A program made the position numbers and the translations under genes. The notes beneath the pieces are model-generated. The model was not told where the DNA came from, did no database searches, and saw nothing but the letters and a program-made list of their open reading frames with translations. From Patescibacteria group bacterium (lineage in GTDB: Bacteria; Patescibacteriota; Minisyncoccia; Phycocordibacterales; Zambryskibacteraceae), in NCBI GenBank assembly GCA_004322205.1, contig SCSN01000016.1:27118-91117 (forward strand): 64,000 nucleotides of DNA, in the 5' to 3' direction. Position 1 is the stretch's first letter. Every line of letters begins with the position of its first letter. Of this stretch, positions 6,250-31,546 are shown piece after piece.

Positions 6250-6399
6250 GATTTTATCTCCTGGGCTAATTTGCCCGTTTTCGTTTTCCTCTAATCCGAG
6301 GAGGAACCATGGCCTGTGTGGTCATAGCGAGGAATGGCCTAGTTTTAAGCCACTTTTCGCTATGACCAATCGCAAGTCTTATCAAAGAACTATACCTAC

Positions 6400-7760
6400 T
6401 ATCATACACCTAAACGCCATATTTGTCAATAGTCCCCCGAGGAAATAGGGTTGCCAAATAAAGGCCCAGTTAAGCAAAATTGCTTACGGGTTGCGTGACA
6501 GCTTGGTTGCCGACCGACAATCAAAAACCTATGAACAACAACGTATTAACGTATGCCGAATACCAAAAAAGACTGAAAGAATTGAAAACGCCCGAGGATA
6601 TCGCCTCGTTCGCCCAAGAGCTTATCGCTCCCGCCCTTGCCGGAAATATGACTCCGGAAAAGAAAGAGGATAAGCCGGATGAGCCGAAAGACGAAGCTCC
6701 GGAGGAACCTCGCAAGAAGCGCATCCTTCTGCCGAAGGAAAAACTCTATGCGATCCGAAAGCTTCAACTTACAGACGCGAACGTGATCAGTCCGTGGTAC
6801 GACGTGGTGGGCAACGATACCGATGCGATGGTAATCAGCCTCTACGCCAAAGGTCTGACGACGCGCGACATCTCAAGCTACCTTAAGAATATGCACGGGA
6901 TCGAAATCGCGCAACCGTCGATATCCGCAATCACCGACAAAGTGTTTCCGTTGGTGAAAGAATGGCAGATGCGATCTCTTTCGTCATGCTATCCGGTCGT
7001 ATACCTCGACGGTTTGCATTTCAAAGTCCGCGACGCCGGCAAGATCGTGTCCAAGGTCGCCTACATCGTGCTTGGCATAAATCAGTACGGACAAAAAGAG
7101 GTGCTTGGCATCTGGGTGAGCGAATCCGAGGGATCGAAGTTCTGGATGCATGTGCTCAATGACATGAAGAATCGAGGCGTCGATGACATACTCATCGCTT
7201 GTGTGGACGGTCTGAAAGGTTTTCCGGAAGCGATCAAAGCCATGTATCCTCACGTCGACGTGCAGGTGTGCATCGCGCATCAGATCAGACACACGATCAT
7301 GTTCATTCCGCACAAGGACAAGAAGCAATTCTGCGACGAGCTCAAATCCATTTACACGGCCGCGAATGAGGAAGCTGGCATGGACTCCCTCAAAGACATG
7401 ATGGAACGCTGGCCGCAGTACCGCTCGTATCTCAAGAGCTGGGAAACTCGATGGTCTGACTTGATACCGTTCTTCGGCTATCCGCAACCGATCCGAAAAA
7501 TGGTCTACACCACGAACGCCATCGAAAATCTCAATAGGCAGTTCCGCAAGGTGACCAAGACGACGACTATCTTCCCTCACGATGACGCGCTTATAAAGCT
7601 GTTATGGCTGGCGCAGGCCGACATCACGCAGGGATGGGTGCTTACCACAAGAAATTGGGGAGAAGTTATGGCTCAACTCAATATTCTGTTTCCGGATCGC
7701 GTACACTTCTAATCGCCGATCCAGTCGACATTAATTAACTAACCGGCCGGTCCAGAACTC
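6400..7760 (+). mobile_element. IS256-family insertion sequence (boundaries not resolved)
   Basis: The transposase gene is present, but I could not find convincing terminal inverted repeats by eye. The coordinates are only a bracket. Confidence 0.4.
6531..7712 (+). CDS. IS256-family (Mutator-type) transposase
   Basis: There is full-length similarity to IS256/mutator transposases (...CYPVVYLDGLHFKVRD...LIACVDGLKGFPEAI...CIAHQIRH...). The start is trimmed to MNNNVLTYAEY. Confidence 0.85.
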   Translation: MNNNVLTYAEYQKRLKELKTPEDIASFAQELIAPALAGNMTPEKKEDKPDEPKDEAPEEPRKKRILLPKEKLYAIRKLQLTDANVISPWYDVVGNDTDAMVISLYAKGLTTRDISSYLKNMHGIEIAQPSISAITDKVFPLVKEWQMRSLSSCYPVVYLDGLHFKVRDAGKIVSKVAYIVLGINQYGQKEVLGIWVSESEGSKFWMHVLNDMKNRGVDDILIACVDGLKGFPEAIKAMYPHVDVQVCIAHQIRHTIMFIPHKDKKQFCDELKSIYTAANEEAGMDSLKDMMERWPQYRSYLKSWETRWSDLIPFFGYPQPIRKMVYTTNAIENLNRQFRKVTKTTTIFPHDDALIKLLWLAQADITQGWVLTTRNWGEVMAQLNILFPDRVHF

Positions 7761-9154: not shown

Positions 9155-9778
9155 CTAGGCGGATTCCAAGCGGCTTCCGCCAGAGAGACTGCGAAAAGCC
9201 CTCTCCTGATAACGGTGCCTGACCCATGAGATTTCCTCTTCCGAGGCCCCATCCGCCTTCGCAAGCCTTGCCCAATCAGTGTAGGCCCCCCAAACAGCAG
9301 TTACCGGGGAATCGAACACTTCTTGAGGCAGAAGCTGATAGCCGAACTTCTCCAAAACCCACAGCACCTCATGGCGAAGGCGGGAGAGAATGCCGGGAAA
9401 ACGCATAGCCCCGCGGAAACCATTCCTCACCAAGATAAGCGCCCATAACAAAGTGAGGTGATCAACATCTGCTTGAGGCAGAGGTTCGTCGCGCCCATGA
9501 CGCCCTGTGGCTAAATTGCCGTTCTCGGATACCCTCTTGTTGTAGCGCGAACGAATCGAGAGCAGTCTTTCGCCCACTGGCCAAAGAAAAAACTGATCAG
9601 GATCAGCCCTCCTGAATTCCTTTCCGGTTCTTTCCCTGAAAAGCTCGAGGCGGAAAGCCAGCTCCTCCTCGAAAAGCGAGCGGGAAAGACCGTTTTTGGC
9701 GGGGAAAAACCCCATACCGGCTGCGATCCGAAGCAACAGGCGCGCCAGCTTCAAGACAAAACTAGGCTTGGCAGCCAC
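9155..9778 (-). CDS. hypothetical protein
   Basis: It is a 207-aa ORF with no recognised domain. Confidence 0.3.
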   Translation of the reverse strand: MAAKPSFVLKLARLLLRIAAGMGFFPAKNGLSRSLFEEELAFRLELFRERTGKEFRRADPDQFFLWPVGERLLSIRSRYNKRVSENGNLATGRHGRDEPLPQADVDHLTLLWALILVRNGFRGAMRFPGILSRLRHEVLWVLEKFGYQLLPQEVFDSPVTAVWGAYTDWARLAKADGASEEEISWVRHRYQERAFRSLSGGSRLESA

Positions 9779-9901
9779 AATATCCTCCTTGGGTAAAAAG
9801 TTCTTCTGTTGTTATCTTACTCAAAACGCGGGGGAGTTGTCTATGTATATTGGGCAAGTAAATTCCACCGATCTTTTGCCAACAGCAAGTCAGATATTTT
9901 T

Positions 9902-10974: not shown

Positions 10975-11724
10975 TTACGGAGGCAAATGAACCAAGCCAA
11001 GCTCTCTAGCGGCACTCTGAAAATCTGGCGGATGAGAAGCCGTCACTGTGACGAGAATCCTTTCAAGATTGCGGAAGGTGAGAGAATAGGCGTGAAGGGC
11101 AAGCCGTTTAAATCCGAGGAGAGGCGGGCGCTTGGGTGCATAGAGTTTGTCGCAGACAATCGGGTGGTCCATTGCTTTGAAATGAACACGGATTTGGTGC
11201 GTCCGCCCGGTCTTTGGCCGCGCCTCAACAAATGTCGCATCTTTACCTCTCCCGAGCACCCAGAAGTAAGTGGTCGCCTCGCGCAGAGCGCCTCGCGCTC
11301 CGCGCTCGGCGGAGCGTTTGCGAAAATCGCTTCTGCTCCTGCCAATGGGCAGATTTATTATCCCCTCATTATCCTTGAGTACTCCATAGACAAAGCAGTG
11401 ATAGGTCTTCTCTATCTCCCTGCCTTGAAACTGTTTTTTGAGAGCGGCGAATGCTTCCTTGTTTTTCGCCAAAACCAAAACACCCGATGTTTCCCGGTCT
11501 AGCCGATGCACCACACCCGGACGCGGTATCTCGCGAGCTATAGATCGTGAACCGTTAATCTTTAGCGGTTCGCCAACTGTTGCCGACTGTGGGTAGCGAG
11601 TTAGCATCCAGTCTGTAATATCCTCCTCCTTCCTTCTGCCATCCGAATGCACGACGAGCCCCGGCGGCTTGTTTATAACAACAATATCCTTGTCCTCATA
11701 TAGAACAGAGATCTTCTGAATCAT
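10975..11724 (-). CDS. RluA-family 23S rRNA pseudouridine synthase (RluD-like)
   Basis: HRLDRETSGVLVLAKN is the catalytic Asp motif, and there is an N-terminal S4-like region. Confidence 0.85.
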   Translation of the reverse strand: MIQKISVLYEDKDIVVINKPPGLVVHSDGRRKEEDITDWMLTRYPQSATVGEPLKINGSRSIAREIPRPGVVHRLDRETSGVLVLAKNKEAFAALKKQFQGREIEKTYHCFVYGVLKDNEGIINLPIGRSRSDFRKRSAERGARGALREATTYFWVLGRGKDATFVEARPKTGRTHQIRVHFKAMDHPIVCDKLYAPKRPPLLGFKRLALHAYSLTFRNLERILVTVTASHPPDFQSAARELGLVHLPP

Positions 11725-11726
11725 TG

Positions 11727-11809
11727 TGGGCGAGGGGAGATTTGAACTCCCACGGGCTTGCGCCCATAGCGCCCTGAACGCTACGTGTCTGCCATTTCAC
11801 CACTCGCCC
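11727..11809 (-). tRNA. tRNA-Leu (anticodon CAG)
   Basis: A manual cloverleaf fits: acceptor GGGCGAG/CTCGCCC, anticodon stem TAGCG/CGCTA, loop TTCAGGG, long variable arm and T-loop TTCAAAT. Confidence 0.8.
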
Positions 11810-12694: not shown

Positions 12695-12767
12695 GATAAA
12701 TCCACGCCCCCGTAGTTCAATGGACAGAACCGCGGACTTCTAAGCCGCTGATGTAAGTTCGATTCTT
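12695..12767 (+). tRNA. tRNA-Arg (anticodon TCT)
   Basis: Acceptor GCCCCCG/CGGGGGC, anticodon loop CTTCTAA and T-arm GTAAG-TTCGATT-CTTAC fit. Confidence 0.85.
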
Positions 12768-12797
12768 ACCGGGGGCGCAAAATTCGTAGTATAGTTA
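12765..12797 (+). repeat. 33-bp direct repeat X, copy 1 (gcgcaaaattcgtagtatagttaaaccacaaaa), starting in the last bases of tRNA-Arg
   Basis: It is identical to 14485-14517. Confidence 0.85.
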
Positions 12798-12813
12798 AAC
12801 CACAAAAGAACCC

Positions 12814-12844
12814 AAAGAAAAACATCGGCTCGAACCATATTTTA
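12814..12844 (+). repeat. recombinase-gene micro-remnant: aaagaaaaac fused to a reverse-complement copy of the 27-bp repeat (aaaaacatcggctcgaaccatatttta)
   Basis: It matches the reverse complement of 20605-20631 and 22026-22052 (one mismatch each) and also 13468-13493. Confidence 0.6.
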
Positions 12845-12889
12845 ATTTTGGGGGAAGAAAATTTTTTAATCCTTCTCTGATGATTACAA

Positions 12890-13339
12890 ATGACTTTACC
12901 TACACATGTATTAGCTGGACTAATAATTGGCAAAATAACAGGAGATTTTTCTACGGCAATCGCCGGTTCTCTGGTAATGGATTTAGACCATACTATTTCG
13001 TATTTTCGCCACGGAATTTTATTTAAACCTCGCCAATTATTTAAGGCAATATCTGACGAAGCAGACCCGTGGGGTGACCAAAGAAATTTTTTACACAGCA
13101 TTTTTAGTTGGGTTGTCATTTCTGTTGCGCTTTTAACAATTAATTTTAATTTTGGTTTAGTATTTTCCATAGCTTATTTTTTTCACTTAGTTTTTGACGC
13201 TTTGGATGGGGCTGATTTTTATCCATTTTTCCCTTTCAAAAAATTTGCGATAAAAGGGTTTGTAGAATATTACTCAAAACAAGAAATTATTTTTGACATT
13301 TTATTGATTCTCGTTTTTGTCGCTCTTTTTGTCATTTGA
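12890..13339 (+). CDS. YdjM-like membrane-bound metal-dependent hydrolase family protein
   Basis: MTLPTHVLAGLIIGKI...HLVFDALD gives a multi-TM protein with His/Asp motifs typical of PF04307. The assignment is moderate. Confidence 0.45.
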   Translation: MTLPTHVLAGLIIGKITGDFSTAIAGSLVMDLDHTISYFRHGILFKPRQLFKAISDEADPWGDQRNFLHSIFSWVVISVALLTINFNFGLVFSIAYFFHLVFDALDGADFYPFFPFKKFAIKGFVEYYSKQEIIFDILLILVFVALFVI

Positions 13340-13401
13340 TTCAGCTCCAATTTTTTGATAAAATCCGCTTGGTATTCGCTTCGCGAATTCTTGGATTAAA
13401 T

Positions 13402-13493
13402 GCCGCCAAAGAAAAACTTGAAATCGTTGCTTCGCTCTGCGAAGCCCAAACTGCCAAAGAACCTGAAAACAAATCGGCTCGAACCATATTTTG
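13402..13493 (+). pseudogene. internally deleted fragment of a large serine recombinase gene (codons about 30-55 joined to the 3'-end repeat)
   Basis: It translates AAKEKLEIVASLCEAQTAKEP, matching residues 31-53 of the intact recombinase at 21978. It is followed by aaacaaatcggctcgaaccatattttg, the reverse complement of the 27-bp repeat. Confidence 0.5.
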
Positions 13494-13634
13494 TAAGGGC
13501 AAAAGAAATTTTTTCATAAGGATTTTTGAAAACAGAAACTCGAAAGGGTTTCTGTTTTCAGTTGATTTTTATTGTTATTTCTGCTAGTTTGTCTATGGAA
13601 CCCCGACAACTAAACACAGAGAGGAGAGTTCTTT

Positions 13635-20319: not shown

Positions 20320-21978
20320 TTACCAAAGAACGAAGTGATTGGTTGTAAATCGCAATCCCGTTAAAAGTTCGCCCCTGTAGTTCAATGGATAGAATGCGAG
20401 ATTGCGGATCTCGTGATTCAGGTTCGAATCCTGACGGGGGCGCAGAATTAAGGACAAACTTTTTTGGGACGGAGCTTGTAATCGGGGTTCGATTCCTCGC
20501 GGGGGGGACACTTTAGAAAAGCGCAAGTCAGAGGAAGCCGCCTCGCTTCGCTCGGCGGCCATTTCGTATTGAATTTTGGGGGCAAAAACGAATTGGCGGT
20601 TTCGCAAAATATGGTTCGCGCCGATGTTTTTAAGAAATGTTGTCATTTTGGGATAATTATTTTCGGAAAGCAATTTTTCGGCTTGATTTAAGGATAAAAC
20701 GAACTCACGAGCCGGTTCGAGCCACGACAGGCCTTTCTGCTCAAAATCAACAACCTTCTCCTGTAAACGGACTTTTTCGGCCACCAATTTTTCTTTTTTG
20801 GCGGCGTATTCTGCTTGTGTAAGCGCGTTGTCTAAATATACATCAAGCAGTTTTTGGAGCTTCATTTCGTTTTGGGTTAATTTGCTTTTCAAAATATCAA
20901 CTCCAGCTTGAAATTCTTGTTTCGCGTTCTCCTGTTCTTTTGCTAACGCCGCCAAAACTTTTTCAGTGTCGTGGCTCGACAAAGAAACTTTTTGAAGAAA
21001 GGTTTTGATTTGCGCGGCTAACTCGTTTTCTTGGATATAGTGCTTTTCTTGGCATACGCCTTTCTTTTTCGTACATCGGTAGTAGGTATAAATGCCACCG
21101 TTGCCTTTGGCATATTGCGCGGTTATGGAGCAATCGCATGAGGCGCATTTCATCAAGCCGAGAAAAGCAAAGTGGTGTTTCTTTACTTCCTGAACCCTGC
21201 CGCGCTTCGCCATCACTTCTTGGCACAAATCAAAAAGTTTCTTTGAGATTAACGGCTCGTGTGTTCCCTCAAATATCTCACTTCGGTATCGCATGAGTCC
21301 GAAGTAGAATGGATTTTGTAGAAGGTGCCGAACATTGCTTACGGAAATTTCTTTGCCGAGATTTCCGCGCAAGCCGTTTTCCTTGCACCAATTTGCGAGA
21401 GAAAGAAATGTGTAGCTTCCGGTTGAATACATCTCAAAAAGTTTTCTGACCTTAGGTGCTTTTTCGGTATCAACATCAATACCTCGGGTCTTAGGGTTAT
21501 TCAAGTAGCCAATCGGAGCCCAACTTGGCCACACTCCATTTCGGATTTTTTGCCGCAAACCCCTTTTTACATTCTCTCGCAGATTGTCCACATAGTATTT
21601 TGATTGTCCAAAAGCAATATTCAGCATAAAAAGTCCTTGCGGTGTCGGTTCACACCAAAAAGTCGGAAATTTGAGGGAACGAATCAAGCCGCGGTCTATC
21701 ATGTGGATTATCTTTCCTCCGTCCACGGAATTTCTCGCAAGACGATCCGGGTGCCATGATAGTATTCCGTCAGCTTTTCCTTTTTCCAAAAATGACAACA
21801 TTTCTGCGAATTTCATTCGCCCGGGTTCTTTTGCGGTTTTCGCCTCTTGGAAAGAGGCGACAATTTCAAGTTTTTCTTTGGCGGCAAATTCATGAAGCTC
21901 AACGAGTTGAGCTTCAATAGAAAGTACTTGCCTGTCGTCATCTTCCGTTGATTTGCGAGCGTAGATTACATATCGCAT
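20320..21978 (-). CDS. large serine recombinase (integrase/transposase-like); true 3' end uncertain because the ORF reads through the repeat and the tRNA genes
   Basis: It has the resolvase catalytic domain (YARKST...DRQ...), a recombinase domain and a zinc-ribbon (CASCDCS...YYRC) followed by a coiled-coil. The last about 95 codons translate the tRNA-Arg and partial-tRNA region (…PRGIEPR…). Confidence 0.8.
   Translation of the reverse strand: MRYVIYARKSTEDDDRQVLSIEAQLVELHEFAAKEKLEIVASFQEAKTAKEPGRMKFAEMLSFLEKGKADGILSWHPDRLARNSVDGGKIIHMIDRGLIRSLKFPTFWCEPTPQGLFMLNIAFGQSKYYVDNLRENVKRGLRQKIRNGVWPSWAPIGYLNNPKTRGIDVDTEKAPKVRKLFEMYSTGSYTFLSLANWCKENGLRGNLGKEISVSNVRHLLQNPFYFGLMRYRSEIFEGTHEPLISKKLFDLCQEVMAKRGRVQEVKKHHFAFLGLMKCASCDCSITAQYAKGNGGIYTYYRCTKKKGVCQEKHYIQENELAAQIKTFLQKVSLSSHDTEKVLAALAKEQENAKQEFQAGVDILKSKLTQNEMKLQKLLDVYLDNALTQAEYAAKKEKLVAEKVRLQEKVVDFEQKGLSWLEPAREFVLSLNQAEKLLSENNYPKMTTFLKNIGANHILRNRQFVFAPKIQYEMAAERSEAASSDLRFSKVSPPRGIEPRLQAPSQKSLSLILRPRQDSNLNHEIRNLAFYPLNYRGELLTGLRFTTNHFVLW
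20371..20442 (+). tRNA. tRNA-Arg (anticodon reads GCG, unusual)
   Basis: Acceptor GCCCCTG/CGGGGGC, anticodon stem CGAGA/TCTCG and loop TTGCGGA fit. A GCG anticodon is atypical for bacteria, so it should be re-checked with a tRNA finder. Confidence 0.7.
20460..20512 (+). other. partial tRNA-like element (T-arm plus acceptor-like, no D-arm)
   Basis: gggacggagcttgtaatcggggttcgattcctcgcggggggg contains a GGTTCGATTCC T-loop but no complete cloverleaf. It is a possible att-site remnant. Confidence 0.3.
20537..20559 (+). repeat. 23-bp GC-rich motif copy 2
   Basis: gccgcctcgcttcgctcggcggc. Confidence 0.7.
20605..20631 (+). repeat. 27-bp direct repeat DR2 copy (caaaatatggttcgcgccgatgttttt), inside the 3' coding end of the recombinase
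   Basis: It is identical to 22026-22052. On the minus strand it encodes ...KNIGANHIL... Confidence 0.85.
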
Positions 21979-24597: not shown

Positions 24598-25554
24598 GTG
24601 CCTGAACTTCCCGAAGTACAGACGACAGTCAACGGAATCAATCGCTCATTGCGAGGTTTAAAAATTGTTGATGTCTGGACAGACTACCCCGTGCGAAGTT
24701 ACGACCATTTACAATGGTCGACTTCTAACGGGGCTGGTACTCGGCAAATTAAAAATCGACATTTTTTTGACTATTTCAAAAAACAAGTTGTTGGGAAAAA
24801 AATTGTTGGAGCAACCCGCAGAGCGAAAAATGTTTTGATTCATCTCTCAAACGGAAAAACAGTGCTAGTTCATATGAAGATGACAGGACATCTACTTTTC
24901 GGTAAATACCGAAAAGTAAAGTTGAAAGTTAAAAGTGGAAAGTTAAAAGATAGATGGATAGCCAGAGAAGCTGGACCTCTGCGAGATGATTCGTATAATC
25001 AGTTCATTCACTTGGTCTTTACTCTTTCAAATGACAAACATTTAGCGCTCTCTGACGTCAGAAAATTTGCCAAGGTTACGGTTTTGCCAACACAAGATTC
25101 AGAAAAGGAACTTGGCAAGCTTGGCCCGGAGCCACTTGAAAAAAACTTTACTGCCCGCGTTCTGGCAGAGAGATTGAAGAAGAAACCAAACGGAAAAATT
25201 AAACAAGTGCTTATGGATCAGAGTATTATTTCAGGCATTGGCAATATCTACTCTGACGAAATCCTCTGGGCGGCTGGCGTTCACCCCTTGCGGAAAATCA
25301 AAACCCTCTCTAAAAAAGAAGTCGAGCTTATCTGGAAAAACATAAAGACAATACTCAAAAAAGGCATTGACTTTCGGGGCGACTCCCTCTCCGACTACCG
25401 CAACCTCAACGGTCGTCGGGGCGGATTCCAATATCACCACAGAGCCTACCAACAGACAGGAAAACCTTGCTCGTGGCCTGGATGCAAAGGTACAATTCAG
25501 AGGATTGTTTTAGGCGGACGAAGTGCTCACTTCTGCCCCGCGCACCAGAAATAA
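24598..25554 (+). CDS. mutM: formamidopyrimidine-DNA glycosylase (Fpg/MutM, Nei family)
   Basis: The N-terminus is MPELPEV, and the C-terminal zinc finger is CSWPGC...CPAHQK. An internal insertion makes it about 318 aa. Confidence 0.8.
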   Translation: MPELPEVQTTVNGINRSLRGLKIVDVWTDYPVRSYDHLQWSTSNGAGTRQIKNRHFFDYFKKQVVGKKIVGATRRAKNVLIHLSNGKTVLVHMKMTGHLLFGKYRKVKLKVKSGKLKDRWIAREAGPLRDDSYNQFIHLVFTLSNDKHLALSDVRKFAKVTVLPTQDSEKELGKLGPEPLEKNFTARVLAERLKKKPNGKIKQVLMDQSIISGIGNIYSDEILWAAGVHPLRKIKTLSKKEVELIWKNIKTILKKGIDFRGDSLSDYRNLNGRRGGFQYHHRAYQQTGKPCSWPGCKGTIQRIVLGGRSAHFCPAHQK

Positions 25555-25556
25555 CA

Positions 25557-26153
25557 ATGCTTGAGTACATTCTCTTTTTCATCGGCATCATGGTTCTGGG
25601 GGACATTGCGCTTATTCCGCTAGTTTACTTCGCAGTAACCCACGCCTTAAGCTTACCCTCGGTTCTTTTGGCGGGCTTCTTGGCAGAACTGGGGAGTGAT
25701 TGCGTCTGGTATTGGATCGGGTACTCGTTCAACAAAGAATCGGTGTACCGCTTTTTCAAACTTAATCGATTGCAAAGCAAAAATCCTGAATTTTTCTCCG
25801 AATTCGCAAAGCGAGCCGACAAAATCCTTTTTCTATCAAAGTTCCTTTACGGCATCCGCGTTCCTGTACGAGTGCTCTACGGCATTGAAAAGCTTCCGTT
25901 CAAAAACTACTTGGCGATTAACATCTGGGGCTCGGTTCTGTGGCTTCTGCTTATTTCAGGTCTTGCTTTCACCCTTGATGTTAGCGCCGAGGAGCTCAAG
26001 CTCTACGTGCGGCGCGGCGAAATCGGGTTTACGGTCTTTTTCTTGTTTGTCTTTCTATTTGAAGTTTGGGCGAAAAGATACCTCAAGCGCTTTCTCGACT
26101 TCAAGAACAAATCATCCGGAACACAGTCACGCCCACGGCCACAGAAACATTGA
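25557..26153 (+). CDS. DedA/VTT-domain membrane protein
   Basis: It is multi-TM with ...FLSKFLYGIRVPV... typical of the DedA family. The start is trimmed to MLEYILFF. Confidence 0.65.
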   Translation: MLEYILFFIGIMVLGDIALIPLVYFAVTHALSLPSVLLAGFLAELGSDCVWYWIGYSFNKESVYRFFKLNRLQSKNPEFFSEFAKRADKILFLSKFLYGIRVPVRVLYGIEKLPFKNYLAINIWGSVLWLLLISGLAFTLDVSAEELKLYVRRGEIGFTVFFLFVFLFEVWAKRYLKRFLDFKNKSSGTQSRPRPQKH

Positions 26154-26574
26154 GAGACTCCTTTTTACCGTGCATGGGGATTTCAGCGATCACGTCAGCC
26201 AAATTTAAGACGCTTTCAGTCAGTCCGCCCACTTCGCTGCCGAAGATAAAGACGCAGGGAAATTTAATTTTAGCTTTTCTGTAATCTCTTGCTCGTCTCT
26301 CCTGTTCGACAGCAACCACAAACACTTTTTCTCTTTTGAGATTTTCAATAAGACGCCCGATATCTTTCCTCTTCTCCCACGACATCGTTCTCTCCGCTCC
26401 CAGCGCCACTTTGGCAATTTCTTTGACCCCGCGGCCAAAGCGATCGTGCGGTGCCGGCGTGTAACCGGTGAGATATATTTTCGAAACACCCGCCGCATCA
26501 GCCGTTCGAAAAATCGAACCGACGTTGTGGCAGCTTCTTATGTTGTGCAGAATAAGATAAACCTCTCTTTTCAT
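26101..26574 (-). CDS. SpoU/TrmH-family RNA 2'-O-methyltransferase
   Basis: YLILHNIRSCHNVGSIFRTADAAG...IFGSEVGGL are SPOUT motifs. Confidence 0.8.
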   Translation of the reverse strand: MKREVYLILHNIRSCHNVGSIFRTADAAGVSKIYLTGYTPAPHDRFGRGVKEIAKVALGAERTMSWEKRKDIGRLIENLKREKVFVVAVEQERRARDYRKAKIKFPCVFIFGSEVGGLTESVLNLADVIAEIPMHGKKESLNVSVAVGVTVFRMICS

Positions 26575-26654
26575 TTTATTCAGTCATCCGCCCGGCAGGC
26601 TCATCAAAACACCTATCTGACTTCCGACCTTAACTTTCATGCTAATATAACATT

Positions 26655-27059
26655 ATGCTGAATCCCTTCCCAAATCTCCTCGCCTATGGACTATTGGCAC
26701 CGTTGATTCTACGCCTTGTATTGGGACTTATTTTCCTTAACCTCGGCTACCTCAAACTCCGAGGAGAGCGCGAGCGTTGGCAGAAAGGTTTTGAGGTACT
26801 CCGTCTGCGTCCGGCGCGGGAGCTGGTAAAATTACTCGCTATAATTGAAATCGTCGGAGGCGCAGCTCTCATCGCGGGGTTCTACACTCAAATCGCGGCG
26901 CTTGTTTTTGCCGTCATAACTGCCCTTGAACTCTTCATCGAGTACCGAGAGGAAACACTTCTCAAACGCGACTTCGTTTTCTACTTTCTCGTCTTTGCCA
27001 TCTCACTCTCTCTTCTCTTCTCCGGCGCCGGTTTTTTTGCATTCGATTTACCGCTGTAG
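26655..27059 (+). CDS. DoxX-family membrane protein
   Basis: It has four TM helices with a DoxX-like pattern. Confidence 0.65.
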   Translation: MLNPFPNLLAYGLLAPLILRLVLGLIFLNLGYLKLRGERERWQKGFEVLRLRPARELVKLLAIIEIVGGAALIAGFYTQIAALVFAVITALELFIEYREETLLKRDFVFYFLVFAISLSLLFSGAGFFAFDLPL

Positions 27060-27094
27060 CAAATCGTACCTCGATTTGATACCATTTAAGGTAG

Positions 27095-27165
27095 CCCCCC
27101 ATAGCTCAATGGTAGAGCAACGGACTTTTAATCCGCTGATATGGGTTCGATTCCTATTGGGGGGA
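27095..27165 (+). tRNA. tRNA-Lys (anticodon TTT)
   Basis: Acceptor CCCCCCA/TGGGGGG, D-arm GCTC/GAGC, anticodon loop CTTTTAA and T-arm ATGGG-TTCGATT-CCTAT fit. Confidence 0.8.
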
Positions 27166-27167
27166 AT

Positions 27168-27998
27168 GTGAACACTTTCAAACAAATTTGCATAGAACTT
27201 AGACAAAAAGATCACACCCTTAATGAGATCGCAAGAATTACAAAAAGACCAAAAACATCAATATTTTTTCATATTCAAAATGTGCCATTAAGCCAAAAAA
27301 AGAAGAAAGAAATTATCAGGGCGAACATCGAAAGGCTCAAAAGAACTTCACCAAACAAAAAAGGTAAGAGTTTAAAATCTTTTAAGAAATTCGGAAAGTG
27401 GAATAAGAATAATGTTTTTTTTATTTCACACTTTCTTTTTGATGGAGAAATTAGGTATAACGGTTGTGTATATATAAACAGAAGTAAAATCTTGATTAAT
27501 AAAATGAAAGATGCAATAGGAAAAATCTACTCATATCCTCCTAAAAACTATTTCATTCAGGAAAGTGGTGTTTACAAAATTGCCTATTACAATGTTGCTT
27601 TAGCTAGTTATATTAAAAAAAGGTCTATACAACTAATCAAACAGGCGCCATATTTAGTCAAAGAACTTAAAAGAAAATTGATTCAGGCTTTTTTTGATGA
27701 TGAGGGTTGTATAGATTTTCGCCCAAAGGCTAACACCCGCAGGATTAGAGGATATCAAAAAAATATTTTTGTTCTTGAACTCATTCAAAAACTATTAGTG
27801 GATTTTGATATGGGTTCAAAAATTGTAAAACCAAATGAAATTGTCATCACGGGAAAAGAGAACTTAAATAAATTCCAAAAAGAAATTAATTTTTCAGCTG
27901 GAGTAAAAATAAATGGAAATCGTTCAAATAGTACATGGAAAAAATCTCTGGAGAAAAGAGAAATTTTAGATAGAGCAATTCACTCCTATCAGAATTGA
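27168..27998 (+). CDS. LAGLIDADG-family homing endonuclease (double-motif), AT-rich
   Basis: Two dodecapeptide-like motifs (ISHFLFDGEIRY and LIQAFFDDEGCIDF) about 105 aa apart resemble those of I-SceI-type enzymes. GC content is about 30% against about 50% in the flanks. The start codon is uncertain (GTG 27168 or internal), and the ATG at 27141 lies inside the tRNA. Confidence 0.55.
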   Translation: MNTFKQICIELRQKDHTLNEIARITKRPKTSIFFHIQNVPLSQKKKKEIIRANIERLKRTSPNKKGKSLKSFKKFGKWNKNNVFFISHFLFDGEIRYNGCVYINRSKILINKMKDAIGKIYSYPPKNYFIQESGVYKIAYYNVALASYIKKRSIQLIKQAPYLVKELKRKLIQAFFDDEGCIDFRPKANTRRIRGYQKNIFVLELIQKLLVDFDMGSKIVKPNEIVITGKENLNKFQKEINFSAGVKINGNRSNSTWKKSLEKREILDRAIHSYQN

Positions 27999-28002
27999 TA
28001 CA

Positions 28003-28035
28003 AGGTCAAGAACGCCACGAGTTCGATTCCTAATG
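28003..28035 (+). repeat. degenerate duplicate of the tRNA-Lys 3' end (gagttcgattcctaatgagggata) flanking the HEG insertion
   Basis: It matches about 22/26 to 27142-27167 (gggttcgattcctattggggggaa). Confidence 0.6.
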
Positions 28036-28387
28036 AGGGATATAAACACCCCTCTCCATCAGTCGCGCTACACTAAATACGGATGCACACAGCCATCAGG
28101 AGGTCGTATGTTCTCGTCCTATGAGGTCTATCTTTCAATTGAAAGAAGGGCGAATGGGATAATGCACGTGCGACACTTCTGCTGTAACGGGAAGACACAC
28201 GTCGTCAGGCTTGAAGTCCTCGAACAACAAGGCAAGCGAGAAGTCGTTGCCAGAATCCGCTACCTTATGTGGCGTGATTGTGACAGAAGCTGCCTCGGAC
28301 GTGAGATCGTCGGCATTGTGGTATGCCCCGCGCACCCTTGAACGCCACCCCACCTCGGATGGCGTTCATTCATTTCAAATTTCAATT

Positions 28388-29110
28388 CTAAATCCCCAGC
28401 ACAAATCTCTCGAGGGCAATATCAAAATCTAAAATGCCGCGGCGGGTGTCGTGGTAGAGCCGCACTAAATCAGAAGAGAGTTTGTTGAGTTCGTCTTTGG
28501 TGAAGTTTCTGGCAAAGCCCAGCGACTTGCGGTAGACAAAAGGATTAAGCCCTGCCTCGCTCGCCCCTTTTGAACCGCGCGCGGCAATCATGGCCTTGAC
28601 TTGCCAGAAAAAGAGACGATGCATCTCTTCCGGCTCAATTCCCTCTCGCAATCCTCGCTGAAACAAAATCCAGAGACGCTTGCGGTCTCTAGCGCCAAGA
28701 GCATCAGTCAGAGTAAAAACATTGAATTCCTTGACAGTAGACTTTGTTTTTTTGGCGTCAGAAAATTCCTGGACCCGCTCGACATACTTTGAAACCCGTT
28801 TAATGAGCTCCTTGGGCATCTCTCCTTCAACAAAAATAAAAATGTTTGGAGAAAGAGAAATTTCTTCGAGTTTACTAAGCACCACCTCGCCCGACTCTGG
28901 CAGGAGAAGCAAACCGTCGAGTACTATGAGGAAGCGCGTGATAAAAAGGCCTTGGCTAGACGTAAATTCTTCGAGCCTGCCCTCACTCCAGTTGTCCTCA
29001 CTGATGCGGAAGTGGGCGGCGTCGGGTTTTTTCTTCATCTGTGAATTGACAATCTGGCGCAACTTGCCGCGCACTTTATTGAAATTGTTGCCGTGGAGAA
29101 GGTAGATCAT
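28388..29110 (-). CDS. holA: DNA polymerase III delta subunit (HolA)
   Basis: The N-terminus MIYLLHGNN is typical of delta subunits, with matching length and helical C-terminus. Confidence 0.65.
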   Translation of the reverse strand: MIYLLHGNNFNKVRGKLRQIVNSQMKKKPDAAHFRISEDNWSEGRLEEFTSSQGLFITRFLIVLDGLLLLPESGEVVLSKLEEISLSPNIFIFVEGEMPKELIKRVSKYVERVQEFSDAKKTKSTVKEFNVFTLTDALGARDRKRLWILFQRGLREGIEPEEMHRLFFWQVKAMIAARGSKGASEAGLNPFVYRKSLGFARNFTKDELNKLSSDLVRLYHDTRRGILDFDIALERFVLGI

Positions 29111-29119
29111 AAAAACGAA

Positions 29120-31546
29120 TCACGAATCACGGATATCAAGCCCGTTCATCTCTCCCCAATTTTTGCCGCAGGCGGCGTTGGCAGTACAGACAATTCCCTC
29201 TGATTTTTCTTTCGGCACAATGCTCTCCATAATTTTTTTTATTTGCGGCGCGACCGTATCCACCAGAGAACTTTTAACTTCAAAGAGGAGCTCATCGTGG
29301 ATTTGCAGAATCATGCGCACGTTGTCGCCAAGCCCCTCTTTCTCAACCCAGCGGGCAATGTCGCGCATAGCAATTTTTATAATATCGGCCGCCGTGCCCT
29401 GAAAGGGGGCATTGACTGCCATCCGCTCCGCTGCCGCCTTTATGTAGGGAATTTTTGACTTAATCCCCTCAAAGTACCTGCGCCTGCCGAAAAGAGTCTC
29501 AGTGTAGCCCTTCCTCTCCGCTTCCGACTTGACGTGATCAAGATAGCGCGCAAGAACACTAAATGTTTTAAAGTACTCGGCCAGATAGGCGGCAGCATCA
29601 CCGCGCGATGTGCCGAGGTTGCCCCGGAGAGCGTTTACTCCCATACCGTAGAGAATTCCGAAATTAATGACTTTGGCGCGGCGGCGCATCTCTTTGTCAA
29701 CCTTCTCCTGCGGCACCTTGAAAACATAAGAAGCCACGGCGGCGTGAACGTCTTCGTCATTTCGGAAGATCCGGAGAAGTTTTGAATCCTTGGAGAGAAT
29801 GGCCGCCACTCGCAGTTCAATCTGGGAGTAGTCAAAAGAAAGCAGAGTAAATCCGCGTTCGGCAGTGAAAGCCCGCCGGATGTTTCTCCCTAGCTCGGTT
29901 TTAATGGGGATGTTTTGGAGGTTGGGAGAGGTCGAAGCCATTCTGCCGGTAGTTGTCCCCGCTTGCTTGAGGTTCGTGTGCAAGCGATTGCCAGCGTCGA
30001 GAAGCGGCGGTATATTATCAATGTAGGTAGAGAGAAGTTTGGCAAACTCCCGATACTCTAGAATATGAGAAACAATCGGGTGAGCTCGGAGTTTCTCAAG
30101 CTCCGACTCACGCGTCGAGCGCATGCCGCCGGGAGTCAAACGCTCTCTCTTGGCGGAAAGACCAAGCTTGTCGAAGAGAACAGTCCCAAGCTGACGGGGG
30201 GAGTTAATGTTGAATTCTTCCCCGGCTTCGCTCCAAATCCGTTTCTCACGCTCGCCAAGCTCGCGGTGATACTCTTTGGAGAGAGCTTTCAAATAGGCGC
30301 GGTCAATTTTGACTCCCCGCTCTTCCATTGCTCTCACCACCGGAACGAGCGGTTTCTCGATTTCTTCATAAACAAAGGTGAGGTTTCGCCGCTTTATTTC
30401 GGCGAGAACTTTCTCTTTGGCCTGCGTAAACGAGCGCGTTCGGGCGAAGCGGAGAATATCGTCAAGCGTCGGATTGGTGGTGTTTGAATCTATAAGCCAG
30501 AGCGCGAGTGCTATCTCCTCGACCTCTTGCGGGGAGAGATTTTCGTTTTCGACGACATTGAACGAAGGCTGCGCTCGCTCTACACGCTGCCCATCATTTT
30601 GCCGAAGCGCTTCCTTGAGACGACTGCCGAGTGTTCGGAATTCAAAACGGGCGAAGGTCTGCTCTGCTTTTCCCATATCAAAACCCTCCCGCCACAGACG
30701 CTCTGGGAGAGCAAAGACAATAGGTACATCGCGGCGGATAGTGGCGAGCATTTTGGAGAAGTGCGCTTCTTCTTCGTTGTCGGCTAAAAGTTTCACTTGC
30801 CGTTTGGTGAAGCCCTTCTGTGAGAATTTTTCAGGGTGCTTCTTTAGCTCTTGGTACATCTCTTCGATAGAGCCGAAGTTTTTCACAAGAATGGAGGCGG
30901 TCTTTTCCCCAACGCCCTTGACTCCGGGGATATTGTCCGATGGATCGCCTCGCAGTCCCTTAAAATCCGGCAGAAGTTCGGGCGGGAATCCGAAGCGCTC
31001 TGCCACGCGCTTCTCGTCATAGAGCACGGTGTCGGAGAGACCCTTACGCAGGGTATAGACCACCACCCGATCTCCCTCGACCAGCTGAAGCGTGTCCATG
31101 TCGCCCGAGGCGATAATGATTTTGAGACTCTCGTTTTCCTTCGTTTGTTCCACAATGGCTCCCAAAATGTCGTCCGCCTCAAAGCCCGGTTCGGCATAAA
31201 CCGGAATGGCAAGAGCTTCAAAGAGTTCGCGAGAATGCTCGATTTGAAAGGCAAGATCGTCTTCAAGCTTGGGACGCTTGGCTTTGTACTCCTCATAGGC
31301 TTCATGGCGATAGGTGGGGCCGGGCAGATCGTAGGCGGCGGCGACATAGTCAGGTTTGAGATCAGAGAGCGCCCGGATGAGCATTGCCGCCAGCCCGTAA
31401 AGAGCACCCGTCGGTTCACCTTGCGAAGTTGAAAACTCGGGCAGGGCGTGATAGGCGCGGTGGAGAATGGCATGAGCGTCAAGCAGGACAAGAGTTTTCC
31501 TGTCGCCGTCCCCAACCTTCCCTCTTTCAGATTTGCCTTTAATCAT
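29120..31546 (-). CDS. polA: DNA polymerase I
   Basis: It has a 5'-3' exonuclease domain and a polymerase domain with motifs RRRAKVINFGILYGMG and QIHDELLFE. Confidence 0.9.
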   Translation of the reverse strand: MIKGKSERGKVGDGDRKTLVLLDAHAILHRAYHALPEFSTSQGEPTGALYGLAAMLIRALSDLKPDYVAAAYDLPGPTYRHEAYEEYKAKRPKLEDDLAFQIEHSRELFEALAIPVYAEPGFEADDILGAIVEQTKENESLKIIIASGDMDTLQLVEGDRVVVYTLRKGLSDTVLYDEKRVAERFGFPPELLPDFKGLRGDPSDNIPGVKGVGEKTASILVKNFGSIEEMYQELKKHPEKFSQKGFTKRQVKLLADNEEEAHFSKMLATIRRDVPIVFALPERLWREGFDMGKAEQTFARFEFRTLGSRLKEALRQNDGQRVERAQPSFNVVENENLSPQEVEEIALALWLIDSNTTNPTLDDILRFARTRSFTQAKEKVLAEIKRRNLTFVYEEIEKPLVPVVRAMEERGVKIDRAYLKALSKEYHRELGEREKRIWSEAGEEFNINSPRQLGTVLFDKLGLSAKRERLTPGGMRSTRESELEKLRAHPIVSHILEYREFAKLLSTYIDNIPPLLDAGNRLHTNLKQAGTTTGRMASTSPNLQNIPIKTELGRNIRRAFTAERGFTLLSFDYSQIELRVAAILSKDSKLLRIFRNDEDVHAAVASYVFKVPQEKVDKEMRRRAKVINFGILYGMGVNALRGNLGTSRGDAAAYLAEYFKTFSVLARYLDHVKSEAERKGYTETLFGRRRYFEGIKSKIPYIKAAAERMAVNAPFQGTAADIIKIAMRDIARWVEKEGLGDNVRMILQIHDELLFEVKSSLVDTVAPQIKKIMESIVPKEKSEGIVCTANAACGKNWGEMNGLDIRDS

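Follow-up and report, generated by a model that had tools for sequence, protein, structure and literature searches.

A free-standing LAGLIDADG endonuclease family seated against the 3′ end of tRNA-Lys(UUU) in Patescibacteria

What does a low-GC gene with two LAGLIDADG-like motifs do directly behind a tRNA-Lys gene in a patescibacterial genome, and how did it get there? This question is raised by a 64,000-nt stretch of a Patescibacteria group bacterium (assembly GCA_004322205.1, contig SCSN01000016.1), hereafter the window, in whose own numbering coordinates are given unless a compared locus (L numbers) is named. The original prediction, made from the letters alone, saw here a homing-endonuclease gene flanked by duplicated tRNA 3′ ends, with a group I intron remnant or an integrative element stripped of its integrase as alternatives. 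Our best reading, to which we assign a probability of about 0.7, is that of a free-standing homing endonuclease family tied to the 3′ end of tRNA-Lys(UUU) in Paceibacteria-type Patescibacteria, acquired in the window lineage and expressed by read-through from the tRNA. It builds on the observed fold of the protein, its conserved catalytic acids, a near-invariant junction between tRNA and ATG, the presence or absence of the gene at the site, and a foreign codon composition. The elements on which the answer depends are the following.

27095..27165, + strand: complete tRNA-Lys(UUU) gene (ARAGORN; Rfam RF00005, 71.7 bits, full length)
27166..27167, + strand: 2-nt spacer, AT, from the discriminator base to the start codon (sequence; junction comparison in 76 loci)
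27168..27998, + strand: free-standing LAGLIDADG homing-endonuclease gene, 276 aa, GTG start, TGA stop (open reading frame (ORF) list; homolog alignment)
27168..27359, + strand: N-terminal three-helix domain resembling a helix-turn-helix (HTH; aa 1-36) plus long linker helix (aa 43-64) (AlphaFold2; family alignment)
27426..27449, + strand: LAGLIDADG motif 1, SHFLFDGE, aa 87-94 (alignment)
27687..27710, + strand: LAGLIDADG motif 2, AFFDDEGC, aa 174-181 (alignment)

ARAGORN and Rfam both confirmed the tRNA-Lys(TTT) gene predicted upstream of the ORF; its acceptor 3′ strand reads TGGGGGG, followed by the discriminator A at 27165, and CCA is not encoded. The ORF that directly follows is AT-rich, as had been noticed, with a GC content of 0.294 versus 0.494 for the window. 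At third codon positions (GC3) the figure is 0.25, compared with 0.43-0.58 in the neighboring genes for Fpg, SpoU, DoxX, HolA and PolA, so that composition deviates at the codon level, beyond the effect of a lysine-rich protein. Across 24641-29118, the window agrees in every base with an independent assembly made per run from SRR8426596 (L166), and the arrangement is therefore not peculiar to one metagenome-assembled genome (MAG).

The ORF as called spans 27141-27998 and its first ATG does lie inside the tRNA, in the T-arm, as first remarked. Alignment with homologs nevertheless moved the true start to the GTG at 27168, which aligns to the ATG-AAY of the homologs and stands 2 nt past the discriminator A. 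Gene callers that use the T-arm ATG (window 27141-27167) thus report 285 aa versus the correct 276, and this 9-10-aa N-terminal artefact recurs in many homologs and database entries, visible as length classes of 276 and 285; in protein P0100, translated tRNA (VAQLVEQ...) forms an N-terminal extension. We flag such extension of the ORF into the tRNA as an annotation problem.

The two LAGLIDADG-like motifs of the original prediction were borne out by fold and catalytic residues. The predicted catalytic acid of motif 1 is D92 (27441-27443), and E179 of motif 2 (27702-27704) aligns with the catalytic E117 of I-DmoI in a hidden Markov model alignment. Among 75 full-length homologs, D92 was kept in 74, and G93, E179 and G180 in every one; the consensus in a 25-sequence alignment was SHxLFDG(E) and AFFDDEGC. 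The AlphaFold2 model computed from the alignment (predicted local distance difference test, pLDDT, 89.7; predicted template modeling score, pTM, 0.73) contains an alpha-beta-beta-alpha-beta-beta-alpha unit twice, with motif 1 closing helix 80-92 and motif 2 closing helix 165-179. Its N-terminal helices (H3-13, H18-25, H29-36 and H43-64) belong to a region kept across the family, presumed from the model to serve as an extra DNA-binding module. Foldseek returned 77 PDB matches at E<=1e-3, headed by an intein-associated endonuclease (TliVMA), I-DmoI, PI-PfuI and I-Tsp061I (E 1e-7 to 1e-6) and including I-SceI and the LAGLIDADG domain of WhiA. The profile check suggested with the original prediction gave a divided result: the window protein had no match to PF00961 or PF03161 in the Pfam search, and it reached 21.7 bits against PF14528 (LAGLIDADG_3), whose cut-off is 22.5 (E 2.5e-4), while most homologs carry a precomputed PF14528 match. 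Sequence searches of the PDB yielded marginal matches only, the best being I-DmoI at E about 0.3, and neither NCBIfam nor PHROGs holds a family covering the protein. On the model, the gene product is a monomeric two-domain LAGLIDADG enzyme with an N-terminal HTH module and predicted active-site residues intact.

At least 657 homologs of this protein were found, the closest being 58% identical to it. A scan restricted to one genome per GTDB species delivered 80 family loci, 79 of which are labeled Patescibacteria, candidate phyla radiation (CPR) or unclassified, including Kaiserbacteria, Nomurabacteria, Paceibacterota and 'Minisyncoccia'; the exception, L082, is an Omnitrophota MAG. In this distant member (38% identity) the sequence upstream (L082 1800-1910) contains only a tRNA 5′ half (GGGCCTCTAGCTCATCTGGTAGAGCACCACCTTG...) and no full tRNA-Lys. 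Where upstream DNA was available, tRNA-Lys(UUU) lies immediately upstream on the same strand in 76 of 77 loci. The start codon falls 0 nt past the ARAGORN tRNA end in 55 loci and 1-3 nt past it in 13 (68 in total), and the commonest junction reads ...GGGCG[G/C]-A73-C74-ATG. In relatives, most tRNA-Lys genes without the endonuclease gene have 'CA' after them, so the A of the start codon coincides with a base already present. Hence, a free-standing endonuclease gene does sit at a tRNA 3′ end without an integrase, as first proposed, but it is no unusual one-off. In most genomes the tRNA-endonuclease module lies between SpoU/DoxX and HolA-PolA, in two orientations, and unoccupied tRNA-Lys genes likewise occur in both. 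Since the gene follows the tRNA in both orientations, it is the tRNA and not the neighboring genes that fixes its position. The acceptor-stem class (GGGGGGA or GGGCGGA) showed no pattern with endonuclease lineage in the identities to the window. A phage origin was considered and rejected: the viral contigs of IMG/VR contain no relative of the endonuclease, and no PHROG or NCBIfam family matches it.

The syntenic anchors made it possible to look for the same site without the gene.

26655..27059, + strand: DoxX-family membrane protein gene, upstream anchor (Pfam PF07681, E 1.6e-13; synteny)
28388..29110, - strand: DNA polymerase III delta (HolA-like) gene, downstream anchor (Pfam PF21694; synteny)
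29120-31546: PolA, beyond the HolA-like gene (synteny)

The closest sampled relatives, gathered by a metagenome scan with the window PolA and by look-ups of the best HolA homologs, were L086/L167, L087, L168, L170 and L099, with identities to the window of 60-66% for PolA, 43-64% for HolA and 36-68% for DoxX. The comparison of tRNA-Lys loci called for by the original prediction did reveal the empty site: all five have tRNA-Lys(UUU) between DoxX and HolA without the endonuclease gene. The L167/L086 tRNA is of the GGGGGGA class like that of the window, its end being only a few bases from the HolA gene, and in L170 the tRNA-Lys is inverted. Together with L092, L094, L098 and L090, these relatives make up the unoccupied sites. 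The HolA proteins of gene carriers are only 21-48% identical to that of the window, which places the window lineage outside the main carrying clades; by the names of its HolA matches it is nearest Zambryskibacteria. L090 lies within a carrying clade and has no gene, its nearest carriers being L026 and L085 (72-76% nucleotide identity); its tRNA-Lys is inverted relative to that of L085 and abuts a zincin-like ORF.

Is the gene, then, mobile or resident? The evidence is mixed and leans toward mobile. The 80 occupied genome loci set against the unoccupied relatives amount to a presence/absence polymorphism at one site. GC3 of the endonuclease gene is below that of the host in nearly all cases, by 0.15 on average relative to PolA (47 loci) and by 0.33 relative to the host in the window. 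Over the same pairs, endonuclease identity varies between 0.52 and 0.75 while HolA identity spans 0.28-0.93, a nearly flat curve largely decoupled from the divergence of the hosts, and in close pairs dips of nucleotide identity are restricted to the gene body, with the flanks better conserved. L042 and L046, from different species, share a ~1.2-kb block that is 99-100% identical (L042 3738-4900 versus L046 1-1160) and comprises 190 nt upstream, tRNA-Lys, the endonuclease gene and about 100 nt downstream. Synonymous divergence (dS) is 0 in this block versus 0.60 for PolA and 0.38 for HolA in the flanks, which are 72-91% identical; a second block, of 200 bp at L042 6738-6937, is 100% identical. 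Judged by its sequence, the larger block would be either a recent transfer with the signature of homing and co-conversion or a metagenome assembly artefact, the latter being possible because the L046 contig begins inside the block, 263 nt upstream of the gene. With PolA controlled for, the partial correlation between tRNA identity and gene identity was 0.09, a value uninformative on whether the tRNA travels with the gene.

Several of these comparisons also bear on the alternative that the protein is a domesticated LAGLIDADG factor, a DNA- or RNA-binding protein that benefits the host and is passed down vertically along with the tRNA, such as a WhiA-like transcription factor or a regulator acting on the tRNA-Lys locus. 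ORFs are intact at 75 of 77 loci across deep lineages, purifying selection is strong (omega about 0.07 in L033/L038, the sole pair with usable dS), endonuclease and PolA identities correlate (r=0.70), the combination of HTH and LAGLIDADG recalls WhiA, which is also a fold match, and the place beside an essential gene is fixed. Domesticated proteins of the WhiA type have, however, lost the catalytic acids, and both are essentially invariant here. Moreover, the gene is missing from the five closest relatives and from L090 inside a carrying clade, its GC3 is systematically under that of the host, in close pairs its rate of change exceeds that of the flanks, a block with dS=0 exists, and pseudogenes occur. 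We therefore regard domestication as unlikely. The two disrupted copies among 77, both at the usual junction, are decaying: that at L062 4001-4825 has a stop after 76 codons, and that at L085 4001-4824 has one after 115 codons (premature stop or frameshift).

The homing reading includes a proposed mode of expression. A spacing of 1-2 nt between tRNA and start codon is too short to accommodate a promoter or a Shine-Dalgarno sequence, which points to transcription from the tRNA promoter; promoter-like sites in a consensus scan did not exceed shuffle expectation, and the same scan found no terminator-like site downstream. The endonuclease gene would accordingly be transcribed by read-through. Transcripts of tRNA genes that do not encode CCA usually lose their 3′ trailer through RNase Z, an endonuclease that cuts after the discriminator. 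Such a cut would leave an mRNA with a 1-2-nt leader, C-AUG or, in the window, AU-GUG, which may be translated as a leaderless or near-leaderless message. As to mobility, the presumed target is the unoccupied tRNA-Lys 3′ end with the adjoining downstream DNA. The left half of this site would consist of the conserved DNA of acceptor and T-arm, which the extra HTH domain may recognize, and the right half would be variable. Insertion of the gene splits this site and would thereby protect carriers. The enzyme would cut unoccupied sites, and the gene would be copied in, together with some flank, by double-strand-break repair. Under this scheme, the window lineage would have gained its copy comparatively recently from a lower-GC donor, and the orphan tRNA 3′ fragment that follows the gene may be a scar left by the repair or else the end of the original tRNA after displacement.

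A bolder version, which we put forward tentatively and consider rather doubtful, takes tRNA-Lys and endonuclease gene as one cassette: the tRNA provides the promoter, its processing makes the leaderless or near-leaderless mRNA, as in a bacterial counterpart of mitochondrial tRNA punctuation exploited by a selfish gene, and the nuclease drives replacement, duplication and in-place inversion of tRNA-Lys. This would explain the two tRNA orientations and the partial tRNA-end duplications across Paceibacteria.

Abutment of tRNA and start codon is not confined to the endonuclease gene in this genome. On the - strand of the window (11640-11809), only 1-2 nt separate tRNA-Leu(CAG) from the downstream ATG of an RluA/RluD-like ORF (MIQKISVLYEDKDIVVINK...; A-ATG). 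What the endonuclease gene exploits is thus apparently a trait shared generally by these compact genomes.

We now turn to the sequence behind the gene, on which the remaining alternatives hinge.

28021..28040, + strand: degenerate tRNA 3′-end fragment (T-loop, T-stem 3′ strand, acceptor 3′ strand, discriminator), direct repeat with 27145-27165
28041..28387, no strand: orphan spacer of about 348 nt with host-like GC, from the fragment to the HolA stop

The second copy of the tRNA-Lys 3′ end claimed originally is real but shorter. Positions 28021-28039 match 27145-27163 at 17 of 19 nucleotides (z=6.1 versus shuffles), and blastn lengthens the match to about 25/31 over 28021-28049, whereas 28003-28020, included in the first description, have no match to the tRNA of the window. 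The fragment starts 22 nt past the endonuclease stop codon, and its T-stem is broken. Duplicated tRNA 3′ ends accordingly flank the gene in the window and are not a family trait: among 72 loci, only the window has a significant copy of this kind after the gene, the other 71 giving z <=3.3. The best matches of the fragment are the GGGGGGA-class tRNA-Lys genes of the window, L086 and L017, with about 21/24 identities to that of L086/L167 by manual count, the 'TA' after the discriminator included; several tRNA-Arg genes match it equally well when gaps are allowed. Because the repeat is not a family trait and its source, tRNA-Lys or tRNA-Arg, is uncertain, we do not count it in the mechanism. With moderate confidence, we take it for a break-repair scar or a displaced resident tRNA end. 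The adjoining spacer holds a called 102-aa ORF (28033-28341), an orphan whose only match among 5.8 billion proteins is itself; the spacer shows no blastn or tblastx similarity to 165 loci and no Pfam match, and folding of 27990-28140 disclosed no stable RNA structure (z=0.16). A 12-nt exact repeat, TGATATGGGTTC, shared by the tRNA (27137-27148) and the ORF (27806-27817), was judged a coincidence because homologs match 8-10 of the 12 nucleotides there through conserved DF(D)IxS codons.

The direct repeat (17/19) bracketing an AT-rich insert is what would be left by a tRNA-targeting integrative element that has lost its integrase, the two tRNA 3′-end copies being attL and attR. The ORF list, however, contains no integrase or other gene between the repeats, the insert being the 831-nt nuclease gene alone, and 71 other loci that share gene and junction lack the repeat. 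Recombination through a shared core would not yield a near single-base junction with the start codon against the tRNA end. Furthermore, partial tRNA-end duplications occur in relatives that lack the gene, the window contains another orphan tRNA 3′ fragment, and none of the 80 genome loci shows the nuclease inside a larger element with integrase and att repeats. This alternative of the original prediction is hence very improbable.

The other, a degenerate group I intron or other intervening sequence of the tRNA, would make the downstream fragment the 3′ exon. Patescibacteria tRNA genes do carry group I introns, some with endonuclease genes (PMC13011429), and a tRNA 3′-like fragment does follow the ORF. 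The tRNA upstream is, however, complete and uninterrupted (71.7 bits), an Rfam scan of 26900-28500 found the tRNA alone and no intron family at E<=10, Intron_gpI included, the T-stem of the fragment is broken, and other family members have no downstream fragment. In addition, the reported Patescibacteria tRNA introns interrupt the anticodon loop at position 35/36, and the enzymes they encode are of the HNH type (PMC13011429). An intron origin is in our view scarcely credible. An intein setting is not apparent either, as the ORF list does not place the endonuclease ORF in frame within a host protein.

A further possibility concerns the repeat only, namely that 28021-28040 is the relic of a separate, decayed neighbor tRNA and has nothing to do with how the endonuclease gene came in. 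The fragment resembles tRNA-Arg genes to about the same degree as tRNA-Lys, a second orphan piece of a tRNA 3′ end follows tRNA-Arg(GCG) at about 20455-20510, and relatives without the gene display partial tRNA-Lys duplications. On the other side, the closest relatives have no second tRNA between DoxX and HolA, the best ungapped match is GGGGGGA-class tRNA-Lys, with the 'TA' trailer of L086/L167, and the fragment starts only 22 nt past the stop codon of the gene. We consider this origin of the repeat possible, if somewhat unlikely.

Other tRNA loci in the window and its relatives also carry irregular sequences. The fragment at 20455-20510 (+ strand; T-arm GGGGTTCGATTCCTCG and acceptor CGGGGGGGA-CAC) lies ~45 nt past tRNA-Arg(GCG) (20371-20443); L016 and L090 have tRNA-Arg(CCG) at the matching position, and it could be a decayed second tRNA or a tRNA overlooked by ARAGORN and Rfam. 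Directly after tRNA-Arg(TCT) (12706-12778) comes a second AT-rich stretch (12751-13500, GC about 0.35) with a 149-aa hydrophobic ORF inside it (12890-13339, + strand), which may be another tRNA-adjoining insertion. In L090 (reverse complement), tRNA-Lys(UUU) at 9775-9848 ends in GGGCGGAC and is followed immediately by the ATG of a ~127-aa zincin-like ORF (HEFAHYFG) that replaces the endonuclease gene, and L085 and L025 have a homologous ORF on the other side of the tRNA, divergently oriented; the 74-nt tRNA gene thus appears to have been inverted in place. Among loci without the endonuclease gene, L087 (about 9400-9520) and L094 (about 6390-6500) have a copy of the tRNA-Lys 5′ end ~90 nt upstream, and in L088 (4488-4823; tRNA-Lys CUU) the tRNA 3′ end, together with the sequence that follows it, is present as a direct repeat. 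The tRNA-Lys locus looks like a rearrangement hot spot. At L092 5972-6045, ARAGORN labels the gene at the tRNA-Lys position 'tRNA-Stop(tta)'; the sequence reads CCCTTTTAAGG, and the label is probably a shifted anticodon-loop call on a normal tRNA-Lys(UUU).

A number of points weigh against the homing endonuclease reading. Cleavage activity, target site and transcript rest on inference, and the window protein by itself falls below the Pfam cut-off (21.7 versus 22.5 bits). Genomes differ in what would be the right half of a target site, and homing from one species to another would be limited accordingly. Ordinary genes start against tRNAs as well (tRNA-Leu and the RluA-like gene in the window, tRNA-Lys and the zincin-like gene in L090), and the junction may therefore reflect the compactness of these genomes instead of an expression trick specific to the gene. 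Endonuclease identity tracks PolA identity (r=0.70); one pair aside, no copy is much closer than host genes, so that inheritance looks mostly vertical and transfers may be rare, and the identical block of that one pair, L042/L046, could be an assembly artefact. No close donor was sampled, the best homolog being 58% identical, and the flanking tRNA repeat is missing from the other 71 loci.

Introns, inteins and phage genomes are the known settings of homing endonucleases, and in CPR bacteria these enzymes have so far been studied as passengers of rRNA insertions. To these, the present analysis adds a cellular, intron-less LAGLIDADG family of more than 650 members at the 3′ end of one tRNA gene, positioned with near single-base regularity. 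A full-text literature search, of incomplete coverage and thus no proof of absence, yielded no account of a patescibacterial LAGLIDADG gene set directly against tRNA-Lys, and the family is apparently undescribed. If our reading holds, this would be a natural gene wholly dependent on a tRNA gene for its transcription and on tRNA processing for its mRNA 5′ end, and it would give a reason for the frequent rearrangement of the tRNA-Lys locus in reduced genomes. Related nucleases that presumably recognize a conserved tRNA-derived sequence may also interest meganuclease engineers. The chief value of the family lies in the entry it offers to tRNA-coupled expression and to tRNA-Lys locus rearrangements in CPR genomes.

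How does the window enzyme compare with known systems? In fold, it is most like I-DmoI and the monomeric two-motif enzymes encoded by archaeal introns and inteins (PF14528), with which it shares two pseudo-symmetric domains in one chain and acids at the motif ends (D21 and E117 in I-DmoI, D92 and E179 here); at the sequence level, the match to I-DmoI is only marginal (E about 0.3). Enzymes of that type reside in an intron or intein, whereas the window gene is free-standing and encodes an additional N-terminal HTH and linker helix of about 65 aa. The closest analogue in lifestyle is SegB of phage T4, which, like other seg and mob genes, is reportedly free-standing, located among or next to tRNA genes, and spread by break repair with co-conversion of flanks. 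SegB is, however, a GIY-YIG enzyme on a phage, as opposed to a LAGLIDADG enzyme on a cellular chromosome, and to our knowledge has no start codon fixed against a tRNA end. WhiA likewise joins a LAGLIDADG scaffold to an HTH, but its HTH is C-terminal, its catalytic residues have been lost, and it is conserved in host lineages; the window protein has its HTH at the N terminus, keeps the catalytic residues and is patchily distributed.

Within the same bacterial radiation, rRNA insertions and introns of CPR bacteria carry LAGLIDADG enzymes such as I-ShaI, predominantly single-domain homodimers, many of the insertions being group-I-intron-like (PMC11270868). These share the nuclease superfamily with the window enzyme, and they target highly conserved RNA genes (PMC11270868), but they sit inside rRNA insertions, whereas the window enzyme is two-domain and lies outside an RNA gene, leaving the tRNA uninterrupted. 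Group I introns with endonuclease genes are also on record from bacterial tRNAs, namely cyanobacterial tRNA-fMet and tRNA-Arg and Patescibacteria tRNA-Asn (PMC13011429). Such introns interrupt the anticodon loop and need a ribozyme, while the window gene starts past the tRNA 3′ end without intron RNA. The proposed expression finally resembles the tRNA punctuation of mitochondria, which has been demonstrated experimentally and yields leaderless mRNAs. In both cases an mRNA abuts a tRNA, and processing of that tRNA sets, or in Patescibacteria by the 1-2-nt spacing would set, the 5′ end of the message.

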